Shown here in pieces: positions 1 to 8,067 of a stretch of DNA of 8,163 nt. Source of the stretch: a virus (taxonomy: Duplodnaviria > Heunggongvirae > Uroviricota > Caudoviricetes); IMG/VR virus record IMGVR_UViG_2681813321_000020; one strand, 5' to 3'. The notes under the pieces are model-generated. The model made no database searches. It had not been told where the DNA came from and worked only from the letters and a program-made list of their open reading frames with translations. Within the stretch, counting starts at the first letter, position 1. Each line of letters starts with the position of its first letter. Position numbers and translations under genes: made by a program.

Positions 1-215
1 GTAACGACTGGCAGACGCTGGAGCTGGTGTTCACCGCCGGCAGTGCCACGGTTACTCCGAAACTGAATGGAGTGGCTGGCCCGGCATTCCAGGTTATAAA
101 AGACAGTCTGACACTGGGACTGAATGCGCTGACGCTGACGGATGTTACAAAAAATGCAGCGTATGGCGTTGAGATAGAAAGTCTGATGCTGGAGATAAAT
201 GCACCGGCAGCATAA
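1..215 (+). CDS. 3' end of a prophage late-region gene (copy 1, truncated by window start); C-terminal beta-rich, lectin-like domain. Possibly the C-terminus of a NanS-p/YjhS-like prophage esterase, which is tentative.
   Basis: Open frame from window start to TAA TAA at 210-215. Identical to the C-terminus of ORF 4289..4978. Position immediately upstream of the holin matches the usual location of such genes in lambdoid prophages. Product assignment is from memory only. Confidence 0.5.
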   Translation, partial: NDWQTLELVFTAGSATVTPKLNGVAGPAFQVIKDSLTLGLNALTLTDVTKNAAYGVEIESLMLEINAPAA

Positions 216-217
216 TA

Positions 218-510
218 AAAAAAGCCAGCGACTGACCTGAAAAAGAAGACGCTGGCTAAAAGGCCTTATATGTTTGTAGAGACTTATTTTTCACAGACAG
301 CAATGATGCCTGTCAATATATTATCAATATGCGGATTGTTTCAGTTACAGATGCCTTATTAAGGAAAAAAACAGCCAGCACTGACTTTCGGTGGAGAGGT
401 GCTGGCTCAAAAGGATAGATGTACTTCACATGTTGCTTCTATATGGCAGTACATTTTCTGACAGACAGTGACGGATGTTGTCAAGATATTGTGTCATTTA
501 TAACCTGAAT
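218..510. repeat. Two diverged tandem modules of about 145 bp in the spacer between the late gene and the holin, each with a GCCAGC(G/A)...GCTGGC hairpin followed by AAAAGG and a TTTTC(A/T)GACAGACAG...TGTCAA(T/G)ATATT segment
   Basis: Module 1 hairpin: gccagcg (227-233) pairs with cgctggc (253-259). Module 2 hairpin: gccagcac (371-378) pairs with gtgctggc (396-403). Downstream segments 286-330 and 446-492 align with many matches. Read on the minus strand, each hairpin is followed by a T-run, so they look like terminators for minus-strand transcription. Confidence 0.55.
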
Positions 511-581
511 CAGGGGAGGCCGGAATGTTATCTGGCATTTTTAGCAGAGCCTGAATGCCATAATCACGGCTCCCGGCGTTG

Positions 582-620
582 GCCGTCAGTGGGTGACACT
601 GGCGGCTTTTTTGTTTTTCT
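582..620 (+). terminator. Rho-independent terminator just upstream of the holin
   Basis: 10-bp GC-rich stem 582-591 / 597-606 (one G-U wobble), 5-nt loop ggtga, then TTTTTTGTTTTTCTTT (607-620). About 40 nt upstream of the holin start. Confidence 0.6.
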
Positions 621-662
621 TTACTTTCATTTTCTGTCGGCGGTGACGGAGACATACATCAG

Positions 663-869
663 ATGGAAAAAATCACAACAGGTGTGTCATACACCACGTC
701 AGCGGTGGGGACGGGATACTGGTTACTGCAGCTGCTGGACAAAGTCTCTCCGTCCCAGTGGGTGGCAATAGGTGTGCTGGGAAGTCTGCTGTTTGGCCTG
801 CTGACGTATCTGACAAATCTTTATTTCAAGATTAAAGAAGATAAGCGTAAGGCTGCGAGAGGTGAATAA
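663..869 (+). CDS. S: Phage 21-type class II holin (pinholin S21-like), 68 aa
   Basis: Translation [68 protein letters not shown] is closely similar to the recalled S21 sequence, with two TM segments and a basic C-tail. GGAG at 648-651 precedes the ATG. Its stop overlaps the endolysin start (TAATG). Confidence 0.9.
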
Positions 870-1365
870 TGTCGCCGTCATTACGCAAGGCTGTTGCAGC
901 TGCTATTGGTGGTGGGGCTGTTGCCATAGCGTCTGTGCTCATCACTGGTCCAGGTGGTAACGATGGTCTGGAAGGTGTCAGCTACATACCATACAAAGAT
1001 ATCGTTGGCGTATGGACTGTATGTCACGGACACACCGGAAAAGACATCATGCCCGGTAAAACGTATACCGAAGCAGAATGCAAAGCCCTCCTGAATAAAG
1101 ACCTTGCCACGGTCGCCAGACAAATTAACCCGTACATCAACGTCGATATACCGGAAACAACGCGCGCGCTCTTTACTCGTTCGTTTACAACGTGGGCGCT
1201 GGCAATTTCAGAACATCGACGCTTCTTCGCAAAATAAACCAGGGCGATATCAAAAGCGCATGTGATCAGCTACGGCGCTGGACATACGCTGGCGGTAAGC
1301 AATGGAAAGGGCTGATGACTCGCCGCGAGATTGAGCGTGAAGTCTGTTTGTGGGGGCAACAATGA
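869..1365 (+). pseudogene. R: SAR endolysin (R21-like lysozyme) with a frameshift: 1-bp deletion in the GC tract near 1163-1168
   Basis: Residues 1-98 match R21 (signal-anchor-release domain [17 protein letters not shown], catalytic E-8aa-D-5aa-T motif [17 protein letters not shown]). Frame 0 then reads ALFTRSF...FFAK and stops at 1235-1237. The R21 C-terminus ([41 protein letters not shown]) is intact in the +2 frame from 1171 to TGA 1363-1365. Our acgcgcgcgctctttac versus the expected acgcgcgGcgctctttac implies loss of one G. Confidence 0.75.
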
Positions 1366-1799
1366 GCAGGGTAACCGTTATTATCTCCGCTCTGGTTATC
1401 TGCATTATCGCCTGCCTGTCATGGGCTGTTAATCTTTACCGTGATAACGCCATCGCCTACAAAGAGCAGCGCGATAAAGCCACATCCATCATCGCTGATA
1501 TGCAGAAGCGGCAACGTGATGTAGCAGAACTTGACGCCAGATACACAAAGGAGCTTGCTGATGCTAATGCGACTATCGAAAGTCTCCGTGCTGATGTTTC
1601 TGCTGGGCGTAAGCGCCTGCAAGTCTTCGCCACCTGTGCAAAGTCAACGACCGGAGCCAGCAGCATGGGCGATGGAGAAAGCCCAGGACTTACAGCAGAT
1701 GCTGAACTCAATTATTACCGTCTCCGAGGTGGAATCGACAAGATAACCGCGCAGGTTAACTACCTGCAGGAATACATCAGGACGCAGTGCTTAAAATAA
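1362..1799 (+). CDS. Rz: Rz i-spanin (inner-membrane spanin subunit), 145 aa
   Basis: ATG at 1362 overlaps the endolysin +2-frame stop (ATGA). N-terminal TM helix [20 protein letters not shown], then a coiled-coil-rich periplasmic domain. Standard S-R-Rz order. Confidence 0.88.
1561..1746 (+). CDS. Rz1: Rz1 o-spanin lipoprotein, embedded in Rz in the +1 frame, 61 aa
   Basis: AAGGAG at 1548-1553 sits 7 nt before ATG 1561. Signal peptide [20 protein letters not shown] with lipobox V-S-A-C, followed by a proline-rich mature region ([15 protein letters not shown]). Wholly embedded in Rz as in lambda. Confidence 0.75.
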
Positions 1800-1925: not shown

Positions 1926-1954
1926 GTAAGCGTGCAGCAAGAACCGTATTGACG
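1926..1954. repeat. IS66-family terminal inverted repeat (tnpC-proximal end)
   Basis: gtaagcgtgcagcaagaaccgtattgacg compared with the reverse complement of 4351-4379, gtaagcgtcgtctcagcaccgtctggcag; the first 8 nt are identical, with scattered matches beyond. Confidence 0.5.
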
Positions 1955-1962
1955 GGGATGTG

Positions 1963-3501
1963 TTATTCAGTCGGCAGTGCTACGCGCCAGGGGAGCAGTT
2001 CGCCGACCCGGTTTATCGGCCAGTCGGCTATGACGTCAAGGACATAGCGGAGGTAGCTTTCTGGCTCCACTCCGTTCAGTTTGCACGTCCCGATCAGGCT
2101 GTACAGCAGCGCTCCCCGCTCTCCTCCATGATCCGAACCGAAGAACAGGTAGTTTTTGCGGCCCAGACTGACCATCCGCAACGCATTTTCAGCGATGTTA
2201 TTGTCCGCCTCAGCCCAGCCATCATCTGCATAGTACGTCAGCGCCGGCCACTGGTTCAGGGCGTATGCGAACGCTTTCGCCAGTTCTGAGTGTCGCGACA
2301 GGGTTTTCATCTTTTCACGCAGCCAGCTTTCCAGGGATTTCAGCAGCGGTTTCGTTTTCAACTGACGTTCGGCAAGGCGCTGCTCCGCCGTCATTCCCCT
2401 TATCTCTGCCTCGATGGCGTACAGTTCGCCGATCCGTTTCAGCGCTTCCTCCGTCAGGGCTGACGGGGTGCGAACGTGCACATCGTGGATTTTACGGCGG
2501 GCGTGAGCCCAACAGGCGGCTTCCGTTATCCGGCCATCCCGGTACAGCTCGTTGAACCCGGCGTATGCATCCGCCTGCAGTACACCACTGAACCCCGCAA
2601 GATGGGTCTGCGGATGGATGCCTTTTCTGTCCGGGCTGTAAGCGAACAACACCGCCGGCGCCAGCGTTGACCCGGCGTTACGGTCGTCACGAACGTAGGT
2701 CCATAACCGCCCGGTCTTCGTTTTCTTATTGCCTGGCAACAGCACCGGGACAGGCGTGTCATCAGCATGGAGCTTACCGTCAGTCAGCACATAGTCCTGA
2801 AGCGCTTCTTCCAGCGGTGACAGTAGCCGGCAGCATGCATCCACCCAGCCCGACAGCAGTGAACGACTCAGCTCCACGCCCTGGCGGCCGTACATTTCAG
2901 ACTGGCGGTACAGCGGGGTGTGCTCTGCATACTTTGAGATCAGCACGCGGGCCAGCAGCCCCGGTCCTGCGATACCCCGCTCGATGGGCCGTGAAGGCGC
3001 GGGGGCCTGCACGATGGCATCGCACTGAGTACAGGCATGCTTTTCACGTACAGTCCGGATAACCCGGAAGGCGCTGCGCATCAACTCCAGCTGTTCGGCG
3101 GCATCCTCACCCAGATAGCTCAGTGAGCCTCCACATTCCGGGCAGCATGATGCTGCCGGCAGCAGCCGTTTTTCATCGCGGGGGAGTGATTCGGGGAACG
3201 GTTTGCGGGTGCGGGTTTGACGCAGCGGGCGCTGCACGGCCGGGTCGTCAACCCGACCGGTAAGGGTATCACTTTCTTTCTGAAGTGCCTTCAGGTCAGC
3301 TTCCATCTGTGCGATACGACGGGAGACTTTTTCGGAGCGGCTGCCGAAGTTCATCCGGCGCAGCTTATCCAGCTGTGCCTGCAGATGGTCTATTTCGCGT
3401 TCACGCTCGTTCAGCTTTTCCAGCAGGGCACGGTTCAGCGCCTCCTGTTCGGCAAGGAGACGTTTCAGTGCATTGATATCGTCAGGAAGTGAGCTGCTCA
3501 T
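1963..3501 (-). CDS. tnpC: IS66-family transposase TnpC (512 aa)
   Basis: N-terminal leucine-zipper-like region ([36 protein letters not shown]), zinc-finger-like CCPECGG...CTQC, and a large DDE-type catalytic region. Size and position after tnpB are typical. Confidence 0.93.
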
Positions 3502-3549
3502 ACCGGGTATATTACCAGGCTCATTCAGCGTCGACCAGGATAAAGAGGC

Positions 3550-3897
3550 TTACAACATAGTCAGGGACGTAAGCAGTCTTTTAGGCTGCCGCCAGTCGAT
3601 ACCTTCCAGCAGCATCGCCAGCTGTGCCGGTGTGAGGAACACTTTGCCATCCCGGGCTGACGGCCAGGCGAAGCGGCCGCGCTCCAGCCGTTTGGTCAGC
3701 AGACACAGTCCATCGCCGGTAGACCAGAGGAGCTTTACCTGACTGCCATTACGCCCACGGAAGATAAAAACGTGACCTGACATCGGATCGTCTTTCAGCG
3801 TCGTCTGCACCTTTGCCGCCAGGCCGTTGAAGCCGTTTCTCATATCGGTGATGCCAGCGACCAGCCAGATCTTTGTCCCTGATGGTAATGGGATCAA
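3550..3897 (-). CDS. tnpB: IS66-family accessory protein TnpB (Orf2), 115 aa
   Basis: Translation MIPLPSGTKIWLVAGITDMRNGFNGLAAKVQ... matches the conserved IS66 Orf2 family. Its start overlaps the tnpA stop (ATGA). Confidence 0.88.
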   Translation of the reverse strand: MIPLPSGTKIWLVAGITDMRNGFNGLAAKVQTTLKDDPMSGHVFIFRGRNGSQVKLLWSTGDGLCLLTKRLERGRFAWPSARDGKVFLTPAQLAMLLEGIDWRQPKRLLTSLTML

Positions 3898-4298
3898 CGT
3901 TTGAGCTCCCGTATCAGCAGGTTCAGGATATTTTCGCTGATGGCACCATTCAGACGGAGTGATCCGTGCCGGAACGTCACTTCACAGCTGATATTGAGTG
4001 ATTCAGGTGTCGCAGCAGCTACAGGTTGTGACCGGGGGGAGGTTGTAGGGACAACATCTTCGGCATCAAGTGTTATCGGGAGCAGCTCAGGCACGTTGTT
4101 TTCTGTTGTTGAAGGAGGACGTAGTTTTCCTTCGCGCCAGTACTGGCGCCACTTGAACAGCAAATTATCGTTGATCCCATGCTCACGAGCGAGTTGCGCT
4201 ACGGAGAGCTCTGGTCGATGCGAGAGTTCAACCATTTTGATTTTGAACTCAACGGGATAATTAGGGCTTTTTTTACGCACTGCGGTTAATGATTTCAT
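3894..4298 (-). CDS. tnpA: IS66-family TnpA (Orf1; IS3-type HTH transposase-accessory protein), 134 aa
   Basis: HTH region ELSVAQLAREHGINDNLLFKWRQYWREG is typical of IS3/IS66 OrfA proteins. First gene inside the IS end. Confidence 0.85.
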   Translation of the reverse strand: MKSLTAVRKKSPNYPVEFKIKMVELSHRPELSVAQLAREHGINDNLLFKWRQYWREGKLRPPSTTENNVPELLPITLDAEDVVPTTSPRSQPVAAATPESLNISCEVTFRHGSLRLNGAISENILNLLIRELKR

Positions 4299-4350
4299 GG
4301 ATAGCGTCCACCATATTTGGTGTCCACTATTCTCTCAGGAATTTCAGGAT

Positions 4351-4379
4351 CTGCCAGACGGTGCTGAGACGACGCTTAC
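4351..4379. repeat. IS66-family terminal inverted repeat (tnpA-proximal end)
   Basis: Ends in ...gacgcttac, the reverse complement of the GTAAGCG terminus at 1926. Confidence 0.5.
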
Positions 4380-4978
4380 AGCTGCCGGCAGCCGGAGAGG
4401 CTGCTGCGCAGGGCTGGAGCATTAAGGATGGCGGAATTCAGTTGTCAGATGGTGTATTTAAGATCACCAAGCAGAGCAATAAAACCTGGTCCCTGACGCA
4501 TCCGGTGGATGACGCAATTACCCTGCTGACACAGGGCGGCAGACTGACCTGTAAGTTCCGCCTGTCAGGCGCACTGACCAACAATCAGTTCGGGCTGGGG
4601 ATTTATCTGTATACGGACGCTCCCGTTCCTGATGGTGTGGCGATGACGGGTACCGGTAATCCGTTCCTGATGTCGTACTTCACTCAGACCACTGACGGCA
4701 GAGTGAATCTGATGCATCACAGGAAAGCCGGAAACACGAAGCTGGGGGAGTTCGGCGATTACGGTAACGACTGGCAGACGCTGGAGCTGGTGTTCACCGC
4801 CGGCAGTGCCACGGTTACTCCGAAACTGAATGGAGTGGCTGGCCCGGCATTCCAGGTTATAAAAGACAGTCTGACACTGGGACTGAATGCGCTGACGCTG
4901 ACGGATGTTACAAAAAATGCAGCGTATGGCGTTGAGATAGAAAGTCTGATGCTGGAGATAAATGCACCGGCAGCATAA
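4380..4978 (+). pseudogene. 3' fragment of a prophage late-region gene, truncated at its 5' side by the IS66 element (same gene as 1..215)
   Basis: The frame is open from the IS boundary to TAA at 4976-4978 and encodes a beta-rich, lectin-like C-terminal domain. The ORF-track start at 4289 lies inside the IS, so the first 30 codons are IS-derived, not native. Confidence 0.6.
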
Positions 4979-4980
4979 TA

Positions 4981-5273
4981 AAAAAAGCCAGCGACTGACC
5001 TGAAAAAGAAGACGCTGGCTAAAAGGCCTTATATGTTTGTAGAGACTTATTTTTCACAGACAGCAATGATGCCTGTCAATATATTATCAATATGCGGATT
5101 GTTTCAGTTACAGATGCCTTATTAAGGAAAAAAACAGCCAGCACTGACTTTCGGTGGAGAGGTGCTGGCTCAAAAGGATAGATGTACTTCACATGTTGCT
5201 TCTATATGGCAGTACATTTTCTGACAGACAGTGACGGATGTTGTCAAGATATTGTGTCATTTATAACCTGAAT
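4981..5273. repeat. Copy 2 of the two tandem ~145-bp hairpin modules
   Basis: Same sequence as 218..510. Confidence 0.55.
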
Positions 5274-5344
5274 CAGGGGAGGCCGGAATGTTATCTGGCA
5301 TTTTTAGCAGAGCCTGAATGCCATAATCACGGCTCCCGGCGTTG

Positions 5345-5383
5345 GCCGTCAGTGGGTGACACTGGCGGCTTTTTTGTTTTTCT
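5345..5383 (+). terminator. Rho-independent terminator upstream of the holin (copy 2)
   Basis: Same sequence as 582..620. Confidence 0.6.
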
Positions 5384-5425
5384 TTACTTTCATTTTCTGT
5401 CGGCGGTGACGGAGACATACATCAG

Positions 5426-5632
5426 ATGGAAAAAATCACAACAGGTGTGTCATACACCACGTCAGCGGTGGGGACGGGATACTGGTTACTGCAGCTGCTG
5501 GACAAAGTCTCTCCGTCCCAGTGGGTGGCAATAGGTGTGCTGGGAAGTCTGCTGTTTGGCCTGCTGACGTATCTGACAAATCTTTATTTCAAGATTAAAG
5601 AAGATAAGCGTAAGGCTGCGAGAGGTGAATAA
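5426..5632 (+). CDS. S: Phage 21-type pinholin, 68 aa (copy 2)
   Basis: Translation identical to 663..869. Confidence 0.9.
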
Positions 5633-6128
5633 TGTCGCCGTCATTACGCAAGGCTGTTGCAGCTGCTATTGGTGGTGGGGCTGTTGCCATAGCGTCTGTG
5701 CTCATCACTGGTCCAGGTGGTAACGATGGTCTGGAAGGTGTCAGCTACATACCATACAAAGATATCGTTGGCGTATGGACTGTATGTCACGGACACACCG
5801 GAAAAGACATCATGCCCGGTAAAACGTATACCGAAGCAGAATGCAAAGCCCTCCTGAATAAAGACCTTGCCACGGTCGCCAGACAAATTAACCCGTACAT
5901 CAACGTCGATATACCGGAAACAACGCGCGCGCTCTTTACTCGTTCGTTTACAACGTGGGCGCTGGCAATTTCAGAACATCGACGCTTCTTCGCAAAATAA
6001 ACCAGGGCGATATCAAAAGCGCATGTGATCAGCTACGGCGCTGGACATACGCTGGCGGTAAGCAATGGAAAGGGCTGATGACTCGCCGCGAGATTGAGCG
6101 TGAAGTCTGTTTGTGGGGGCAACAATGA
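5632..6128 (+). pseudogene. R: SAR endolysin (R21-like) with the same 1-bp deletion frameshift (copy 2)
   Basis: The frame-0 product is identical to copy 1 (122 aa) and the C-terminal lobe is likewise in the +2 frame. The frameshift site is near 5926-5931. Confidence 0.75.
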
Positions 6129-6562
6129 GCAGGGTAACCGTTATTATCTCCGCTCTGGTTATCTGCATTATCGCCTGCCTGTCATGGGCTGTTAATCTTT
6201 ACCGTGATAACGCCATCGCCTACAAAGAGCAGCGCGATAAAGCCACATCCATCATCGCTGATATGCAGAAGCGGCAACGTGATGTAGCAGAACTTGACGC
6301 CAGATACACAAAGGAGCTTGCTGATGCTAATGCGACTATCGAAAGTCTCCGTGCTGATGTTTCTGCTGGGCGTAAGCGCCTGCAAGTCTTCGCCACCTGT
6401 GCAAAGTCAACGACCGGAGCCAGCAGCATGGGCGATGGAGAAAGCCCAGGACTTACAGCAGATGCTGAACTCAATTATTACCGTCTCCGAGGTGGAATCG
6501 ACAAGATAACCGCGCAGGTTAACTACCTGCAGGAATACATCAGGACGCAGTGCTTAAAATAA
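6125..6562 (+). CDS. Rz: Rz i-spanin (copy 2)
   Basis: Translation identical to 1362..1799. Confidence 0.88.
6324..6509 (+). CDS. Rz1: Rz1 o-spanin lipoprotein (copy 2)
   Basis: Translation identical to 1561..1746. Confidence 0.75.
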
Positions 6563-6599
6563 TTTTAATTTCACTGAAATTTAACAAGTGACTTTCAGG

Positions 6600-6629
6600 A
6601 AAATGCCTCGCAGATGCGGGGCATTTTTG
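6600..6629. terminator. Bidirectional terminator after Rz (copy 2)
   Basis: Same sequence as 1837..1866. Confidence 0.6.
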
Positions 6630-6780
6630 TACCGGTATTTCACCGCGCACCGCAGCGCACAATAAACACCGAACCTGACCCTTTGGAATGGGCCTTTGAG
6701 GATACCAGTTAGTGCTGGCGAGCCTCGGTGGGCTGGTTTCCTATGCGGCAAAGGTTCATTTCAAAGAAGCAGGCAACGCC

Positions 6781-7922: not shown

Positions 7923-7959
7923 CGCGGGTTTTCGCTATTTATGAAAATTTTCCGGGATC

Positions 7960-8067
7960 CATGTCCGGTTTCTCTGCAAGTTAACTATATGAAAAATATA
8001 AAAACAGGCTGTCCGTGAACCGGACATGTGCAAAAAACGGACATGTAAACCGGACATGACCGGTTTT
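7960..8067. repeat. cosB: cosB-like terminase-binding region: one inverted copy (7960-7970) and three direct copies (8018-8028, 8037-8045, 8048-8058) of a (A)ACCGGACATG motif flanking an AT-rich segment
   Basis: The repeats are visible directly. The architecture (an inverted site next to cosN, an AT-rich putative bend site, then further sites, about 190 nt before the terminase start) parallels lambda cosB R3-I1-R2-R1, but the repeat sequence differs from the lambda R sites. Confidence 0.6.

Follow-up and report, generated by a model that had tools for sequence, protein, structure and literature searches.

What occupies the 447 bp that separate a carbohydrate esterase gene from the holin gene in this prophage, and do these sequences control lysis? 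The window, that is, the whole stretch of 8,163 nucleotides that was analyzed (IMG/VR record IMGVR_UViG_2681813321_000020, Caudoviricetes), is a lambdoid prophage lysis region in which the 3' end of an esterase gene, a pinholin gene, a frameshifted lysozyme gene, and Rz follow one another on the plus strand (Table 1). The esterase stop codon (TAA, 213-215) and the holin ATG at 663 delimit a spacer of 216-662, the length given in the preliminary description, which had found this spacer unusual because lysis genes were expected to follow closely on the upstream late gene. That expectation does not hold here: the interval from Q to S is a known insertion site of lambdoid phages, where morons and convergent sRNA genes are found. 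The spacer is very probably the published pasA locus of lambdoid prophages of the Stx1/434 type, with two diverged tandem sRNA genes antisense to the late operon, and its elements are already known ones, namely sRNA genes and an ordinary terminator.

Table 1. Features of the spacer, its flanks, and its second copy. Arrows give the direction of transcription on the minus strand.
Feature	Coordinates	Strand	Details and basis
NanS-p-like SASA carbohydrate esterase, 3' end	1-215	+	stop TAA 213-215
Putative module-1 sRNA (EcOnc52-equivalent PasA/PasC paralogue, ~69 nt)	about 282→214	-	EcOnc52 mapping, fold
Module-1 hairpin	223-230 with 250-257		AGCCAGCG pairs with CGCTGGCT; terminator on - strand
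Module-1 terminator	stem 257→223, U-tract 222→216	-	fold z -6.7
Module-1 promoter-like block	287-316	-	TTGACA 316→311, 18-nt spacer, GAAAAA 292→287
PasA sRNA, major 85-nt form	449→365	-	100% identity to E2348/69 743415-743499
Module-2 hairpin	373-381 with 399-407		AGCCAGCAC pairs with GTGCTGGCT; terminator on - strand
PasA terminator	stem 407→373, next G, then U7 371→365	-	fold z -4.75
PasA promoter-like block	455-484	-	TTGACA 484→479, 18-nt spacer, CAGAAA 460→455
Long imperfect hairpin	514-574	+	holds GGGGAGG 513-519 and 9-codon ORF 525-554
Intrinsic terminator	581-620	+	11 pairs, loop of 5, tail TTTTTTGTTT; terminator scan; fold -20.5 kcal/mol
RBS GGAG of holin S	648-651	+	S RBS annotated in phage 434 record
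Class II (phage 21 type) pinholin S	663-869	+	Pfam Phage_holin_2_1, E 1e-32; phage 434 annotation
IS66-family element, 2454 bp	1926-4379	tnpA, tnpB, tnpC on -	ends GTAAGCGT...ACGCTTAC
Second spacer copy (add 4763)	4977-5383		putative module-1 sRNA 5045→4977, PasA 5212→5128, hairpin 5277-5337, terminator 5344-5383

Pfam matches on the plus strand are to DUF6645, Phage_holin_2_1, Phage_lysozyme, and Rz. The DUF6645 match is to the C-terminal esterase fragment, which is longer in the second copy (4380-4978); SASA family carbohydrate esterase is the annotation of the identical DNA in phage 434 and E. coli E2348/69. A Rha-family gene and a DUF3950 gene lie farther along the same strand. The lysozyme is a SAR endolysin with a frameshift in both copies (1165/1166 and 5928/5929), where a GCGCGCGC run has lost 1 bp compared with phage 434; its pieces at 869-1237 and 1192-1365 are separate frames. 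Window 1-1113 is identical to phage 434, and many substitutions and indels follow through R and Rz; the mosaic junction at 1113/1114 falls inside the endolysin gene. Within Rz, an ORF in another frame (1531-1746, plus strand) has a lipobox-like LLGVSAC and resembles an Rz1-type o-spanin. The motifs CGGACATG and CCGGACATG are repeated at 7955-8058, just 5' of the start (8106) of a terminase-small-subunit-like ORF, and may be cosB-type binding sites.

Window 190-670 (481 bp) matches positions 743240-743720 of E2348/69 at every base (100%). PasA was published there on the minus strand, running from 743499 to 743415 (85 nt, the major form) or to 743264 (236 nt, the minor form), and was detected with the Northern probe GCCAGCACTGACTTTCGGTGGAGAG (PMC8550237, Table S6), whose sequence is that of plus-strand window 374-398. 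The published orientation is esterase > PasA < holin >, and PasA at this E2348/69 locus was validated by Northern blot and RIL-seq and depends on Hfq for its stability (PMC8550237); its log2 fold change in an E2348/69 hfq deletion is -2.78. The preliminary description had offered small-RNA elements as one of several options for the spacer, and this is the option that holds, the two modules being the published PasA locus with the genes on the minus strand.

In EPEC, PasA is among the best-connected sRNAs of the accessory genome, with 41 Hfq-mediated partners that include LEE and bfp genes. It pairs in trans via the seed GCCAGCACCU, which is given in Fig. S5 of the original report (PMC8550237). 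In the window this seed lies at 406→397 on the minus strand, within the 5' arm of the PasA terminator, and it is unchanged in the H-19B, CEC0010, and Sp12 variants. The target motif is CUG(A/U)UGCUGG, one instance of which is the esterase 3' end, at window 183. At the endolysin RBS (857-864), GAGAGGTG is a perfect complement of PasA nucleotides 49-56 (CACCUCUC); three such 8-mers were found and about 2.3 are expected by chance, so these matches are not evidence for pairing with the late mRNAs. The E2348/69 RIL-seq data also contain plus-strand fragments at window 444-462, antisense to the PasA 5' end and -10 region. These fragments are ligated to the unrelated prophage sRNA PasB and are nearly always RNA1.

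The locus is a true member of the PasA family and not merely similar to it, since every defining feature that could be tested is present. pasA and pasC are described as Hfq-dependent sRNA genes between sialic acid esterase and holin-lysozyme genes, exemplified by PasA of YYZ-2008 (NC_011356) and PasC of phage 2B8 (Zhu, Shabalina & Storz preprint 2026). The window locus likewise lies between a SASA esterase and a class II holin-lysozyme cassette and is antisense to both. Its spacer is 100% identical to that of phage 434, whose record annotates two minus-strand terminators and one plus-strand terminator, 99.3% identical to those of Stx1a phages including YYZ-2008 (NC_011356), and 95% identical to that of H-19B. 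Compared with the H-19B/Sp12 type, 11 of the 20-22 differences fall within the 43-nt 5' body of PasA, and the promoter block and terminator are almost unchanged; this is the published distinction between PasA and PasA-2 (Zhu, Shabalina & Storz preprint 2026). Of 5426 complete E. coli genomes, 699 carry the spacer, and the median number of places per genome is about 5. Module 1 occurs at 2304 places in the complete E. coli genomes, the PasA/PasC module at 2850, and the terminator unit at 2850.

The two modules reported previously, each of about 145 bp, are confirmed as diverged copies: 216-362 and 363-512 are identical in 102 of 125 aligned columns, 8.3 standard deviations above 500 shuffles. 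When folded, the GCCAGC...GCTGGC hairpins proved much more stable than shuffled sequences. The T-run of both hairpins is on the minus strand only (plus-strand A217-223 and A365-371), as the earlier reading of minus-strand terminators implied, and they can therefore terminate leftward transcription only. An alignment of nine correctly oriented paralogues (PasA, PasC, and module-1 variants; row L005 was left out) gives 10 consensus pairs in the terminator stem, two of them with compensatory changes (G-C/A-U and U-A/C-G) and one further pair changing to a wobble.

Searches beyond the known relatives were negative. The pattern ACAGACAG-N11-TGTCAA is too unspecific and gave only chance matches in IMG/VR, and a 19-base family pattern gave no match in IMG/VR and five chance matches, in unrelated MAGs, among GTDB species representatives. 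The stem covariation thus draws on few E. coli and phage variants, because these scans gave no distant homologues; the absence from IMG/VR and from the GTDB representatives agrees with the confinement to pathogenic Escherichia and Shigella that has been reported. A scan of the whole window against Rfam 15, which holds AgvB and AsxR, gave no match at E ≤ 1, and the spacer is not AgvB, AsxR, Esr41, or STnc100. Since the PasA locus has no Rfam family, covariance scans miss it. Once recognized, the locus need not be mistaken in annotation for empty spacer or for spurious ORFs, such as the one annotated in phage 2B8; the longer ORFs of the present spacer (53 aa, minus strand, 494-655; 98 aa, plus strand, 475-771) match no Pfam or PHROG family.

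Each module is preceded on the minus strand by a TTGACA-containing block. The TTGACA of PasA starts 35 nt before the mapped 5' end of PasA (484 versus 449), that of module 1 starts 34 nt 5' of the EcOnc52 peak edge (316 versus 282), and TTGACA-N11-CTGTCTGT is common to module 1, module 2, PasC, and Sp4 in an alignment of these four paralogues. The PasA block is nearly invariant between variants, and the transcribed 5' body varies. Judged from these sequences, both blocks are likely to be the promoters of their respective sRNAs. The promoter scan called neither block, and the -10 elements are poor (CAGAAA, and GAAAAA in module 1); a longer transcript may be processed to give the PasA 5' end (Zhu, Shabalina & Storz preprint 2026).

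Evidence on module 1 as a putative sRNA comes from two pathotypes. In the E2348/69 RIL-seq data, module 1 takes the RNA2 place in all (100%) of the Hfq chimeras that contain it, with escD among the partners, and hence behaves as an sRNA there; RNA2 reads at 743267-743294 map to window 217-244. In EHEC, EcOnc51 and EcOnc52 are the reported PasA homologues (PMC8550237). Mapped on NC_002695.2, which may place them a few bases off the authors' version, EcOnc52 of Sakai prophage Sp4 (1181998-1182075) corresponds to window 205-282, that is, to module 1, and EcOnc51 of Sp12 to window 421-345, the module-2 terminator. EcOnc52 was called in Sp4, where IS629 replaces module 2 (all beyond about 337); in these CRAC data, identical module-1 copies could have shared multi-mapped reads. 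This call counts against a competing reading, to which we give somewhat less than an even chance, that module 1 is a decayed duplicate without a gene, its hairpin serving only as a back-up terminator for PasA read-through. The latter agrees with the published account of a single sRNA, whose 236-nt form the PasA authors take as a read-through isoform (PMC8550237): the 3' end of that form (743264) is window 214, past the module-1 hairpin, and no primary 5' end is mapped near 281. It accounts less well for a TTGACA spaced from the EcOnc52 peak edge much as the TTGACA of PasA is from its 5' end, for a body and promoter block (257-364) that departs from the H-19B type at 1 of 108 nt, and for the occurrence of module 1 without module 2 in Sakai Sp4 and at about 100 plasmid places. 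We hold as tentative at best, and rather unlikely, a joint reading in which independently transcribed tandem paralogous sRNAs, like OmrA/OmrB or PrrF1/PrrF2, are combined with cis action together with the adjacent plus-strand hairpin and terminator. Module 1 would then be an unnamed third family member with the seed GCCAGCGUC instead of GCCAGCACC; the cis action would be antisense to the 400-nt esterase 3' UTR and the late transcript, and the sRNA pair with the hairpin and terminator would insulate the lysis cassette or set a nanS-p/S processing site.

The remaining alternatives concern the right half of the spacer and the plus strand. The preliminary description saw there a strong Shine-Dalgarno sequence and a mini-ORF. 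GGGGAGG (513-519), the ATG at 525, and the ORF (525-554) are present, but they lie within a long hairpin that is kept in 7 of 7 variants despite substitutions and indels in the G-rich tract, and the minimum free energy fold of 505-625 is -45.8 kcal/mol (z -3.25). The Shine-Dalgarno tract varies more than any other spot of the right half (GGGGAGG, GGGGGG, GGGGGTGG, GGGGTTGG, or GGGGGGC, with changes in spacing as well), and in each of the seven variants it forms the hairpin base together with GGCUCCC and the ATG is buried too. Nothing supports translation of the 9-codon ORF. A leader-peptide attenuator, in which translation of this ORF would set the 581-607 terminator and hence holin expression, is accordingly very improbable in our view. 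It could draw on the GGAGG-type Shine-Dalgarno sequence 5 nt before the ATG, on the end of the ORF 27 nt 5' of the terminator, and on the identity of the ORF in all seven variants, which is uninformative because the whole 520-580 stretch is invariant; it appears to lack a competitive antiterminator fold, the best alternative pairing of the terminator 5' arm reaching -11.3 versus -20.5 kcal/mol and being unused in the fold of the full sequence. The same structured body and terminator have the architecture of an sRNA, and a separate plus-strand sRNA of about 105 nt, with two hairpins and a U-tail, divergent from PasA and possibly encoding the 9-residue peptide, is also improbable, though somewhat less so: the back-to-back TTGTCAA could serve both strands, and RIL-seq recorded plus-strand fragments from the esterase-holin intergenic region. 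Those fragments, however, map 5' of the putative start and act as RNA1 (target-like), with just 0-3% as RNA2, neither the EHEC Hfq-CRAC list nor the EPEC sRNA list has a plus-strand call here, and the candidate promoter is poor. Some prophages also have a breakpoint at about 529 that drops the 5' half of the hairpin and keeps the terminator and holin.

A Q-antiterminated unit like pR'/tR', in which a promoter at 478-504 would give a short RNA ending at 620 unless Q acts, was also proposed. The hexamers TTGTCA (478-483) and TATAAC (499-504) do exist, but they are separated by a 15-nt spacer and failed the promoter scan, and TTGTCA overlaps, on the opposite strand, the TTGACA of PasA. A plus-strand terminator about 110 nt 3' of the candidate -10 and the invariance of 486-512 among variants speak for such a unit, the latter being equally explained as the upstream region of the PasA promoter. 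The related phages have their pR'/tR' elsewhere, beside Q and 3-4 kb upstream: in phage 434, with the same spacer, about 3.3 kb separates Q and the terminator behind it from the spacer; in H-19B, where Q precedes stx1, the distance is about 4.5 kb, and in both phages other genes lie between; and in Stx phages pR'-tR' is the StxS unit adjoining Q. The window contains no Q, and no Hfq peak or sRNA is reported on the plus strand here in the EHEC Hfq-CRAC and EPEC sRNA lists. A pR'/tR'-like unit at this position is therefore extremely improbable.

The canonical plus-strand terminator noted earlier about 40 nt before the holin gene, at 582-620, is borne out, with a stem at 581-607 and a T-run at 608-620 (z -2.9). 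The terminator scan found 8 terminator-like sites in 1-2000 versus 1.8 ± 1.3 in shuffled sequences, and the annotation of phage 434 likewise gives 581-620 as a terminator. The plus-strand hairpin and terminator are at least 95% conserved at all 2850 E. coli places. In E. coli N96 (locus L007, 2191-2632), a truncated DUF1737 pseudogene runs into the terminator-holin unit at about window 529. The recombination breakpoint falls within the long plus-strand hairpin, and the terminator thus travels with S.

The 581-620 terminator is the first on the plus strand past the esterase gene and lies on the esterase strand, as a moron terminator does; the promoter of the moron itself is located outside the window. 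It would stop esterase transcription that is not antiterminated before S, an insulating role that we infer from the sequence. Because the module hairpins cannot stop polymerase on the plus strand, esterase and stx1 transcripts would continue through about 400 nt of 3' UTR that is antisense to the two sRNAs, and would end at 620. The promoter scan called none between 620 and S and no plus-strand promoter in 450-662, so the lysis genes would need Q-modified polymerase from pR', several kilobases upstream. In E2348/69 the RNA-seq baseMean values are 102 for the esterase, 3.5 for the holin, 3.2 for R, 1.0 for Rz, and 3879 for PasA; when counts are taken per kilobase, the drop from esterase to holin is about 3-fold at very low counts, and is weakly compatible with 581-620 stopping esterase transcription. 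A moron-type terminator that shields the lysis genes would bear on how toxin or esterase expression in a lysogen avoids triggering lysis.

These features suggest the following working of the locus. The holin-proximal gene is PasA, an 85-nt Hfq-dependent trans-acting sRNA with its seed in the 5' arm of its terminator, and the esterase-proximal gene would be a PasC/EcOnc52-like paralogue; each module has a promoter-like block with TTGACA and an intrinsic terminator to itself. The minor 236-nt form would arise when polymerase reads through the first terminator and stops at the second. Both sRNAs would be present in lysogens, where PasA is established to accumulate in an Hfq-dependent manner from work on the identical DNA, at a time when the late operon is shut off, and would act in trans, through Hfq, on host and virulence mRNAs. 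The plus-strand hairpin and terminator would end ordinary transcription from the upstream morons (stx1 and the esterase), and the holin, endolysin, and spanin genes would be reached only by Q-modified, terminator-resistant polymerase.

According to the family description, pasA copies are not tandem duplicates, and the neighboring diverged module is unmentioned (Zhu, Shabalina & Storz preprint 2026). That PasA has a diverged paralogue in tandem, about 150 bp away, seems to be a new statement; this paralogue carries a promoter-like block of its own and bears on the diversification of prophage sRNA families. Module 1 alone (91% identical) is also found with an esterase 3' stub on plasmids of about 80-90 kb, beside IS600 and the uilS lactonase gene, as at L131 1476-1700 (NZ_CP027444.1). 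The multicopy prophage sRNA HnrS (66 nt; EcOnc10-12) was rejected as a candidate for module 1, since it maps 3 kb off in Sp12 and has no match in the window.

The duplication of the region at 4979-5425 is as stated in the preliminary description: the copy is identical and is part of a 1925-bp exact repeat (1-1925 = 4764-6688). The spacer appears twice because the IS66-family element separates two exact copies of the stretch from the esterase 3' end to Rz. The sequences beside the element, CTTTGGAA and AGCTGCCG, do not form a target-site duplication, and the one on the right is within the esterase gene, which suggests that the duplication arose by recombination between two IS copies. The left junction is spanned by none of the 5426 complete E. 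coli genomes, and the IS66-flanked duplication may be an assembly artefact. The two pasA loci of the window are 4763 bp apart, as against a reported minimum of 22 kb (Zhu, Shabalina & Storz preprint 2026).

Among known systems, the pR'-tR' unit of lambda (6S RNA) and StxS resemble the spacer only in having a strong plus-strand intrinsic terminator, overcome by Q-modified polymerase, before the late genes; they directly follow Q and have a strong constitutive promoter, whereas the spacer lies 3-4 kb downstream and has no scan-called plus-strand promoter. The AsxR and AgvB anti-sRNAs and convergent pairs are likewise short, Hfq-bound, antisense to the late operon, and beside a moron gene, and sRNAs of this type likewise have conserved 3' terminators and variable 5' parts, but AsxR and AgvB have no sequence kinship with the window and sit after stx, downstream of pR', not after the esterase. 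EcOnc51 and EcOnc52 (EHEC Sakai Hfq-CRAC; Tree et al. 2014, PMC4104026) map onto module 2 and module 1, respectively, and were listed only as orphan Hfq sites near a terminator, with no Northern blot or function reported (PMC4104026). PasC (E2348/69 PP5; phage 2B8) and PasA-2 (H-19B, Sakai Sp12) are located likewise, directly beside the esterase stop or the holin, and share with the window the promoter block, the AGCCAGC...GCTGGCT terminator, and the plus-strand hairpin and terminator. PasC spacers differ in having a single module, with a third terminator variant, abutting the esterase stop, and PasA-2 differs from the window PasA in 11 of the 43 nt of the 5' body. PasA itself (E2348CN_0003, EPEC E2348/69 prophage PP2; Pearl Mizrahi et al. 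2021, PMC8550237) is identical in sequence throughout the spacer, has the same genes on either side and lies on the same strand, and differs only in that the window carries the locus twice, through the IS66-associated duplication.
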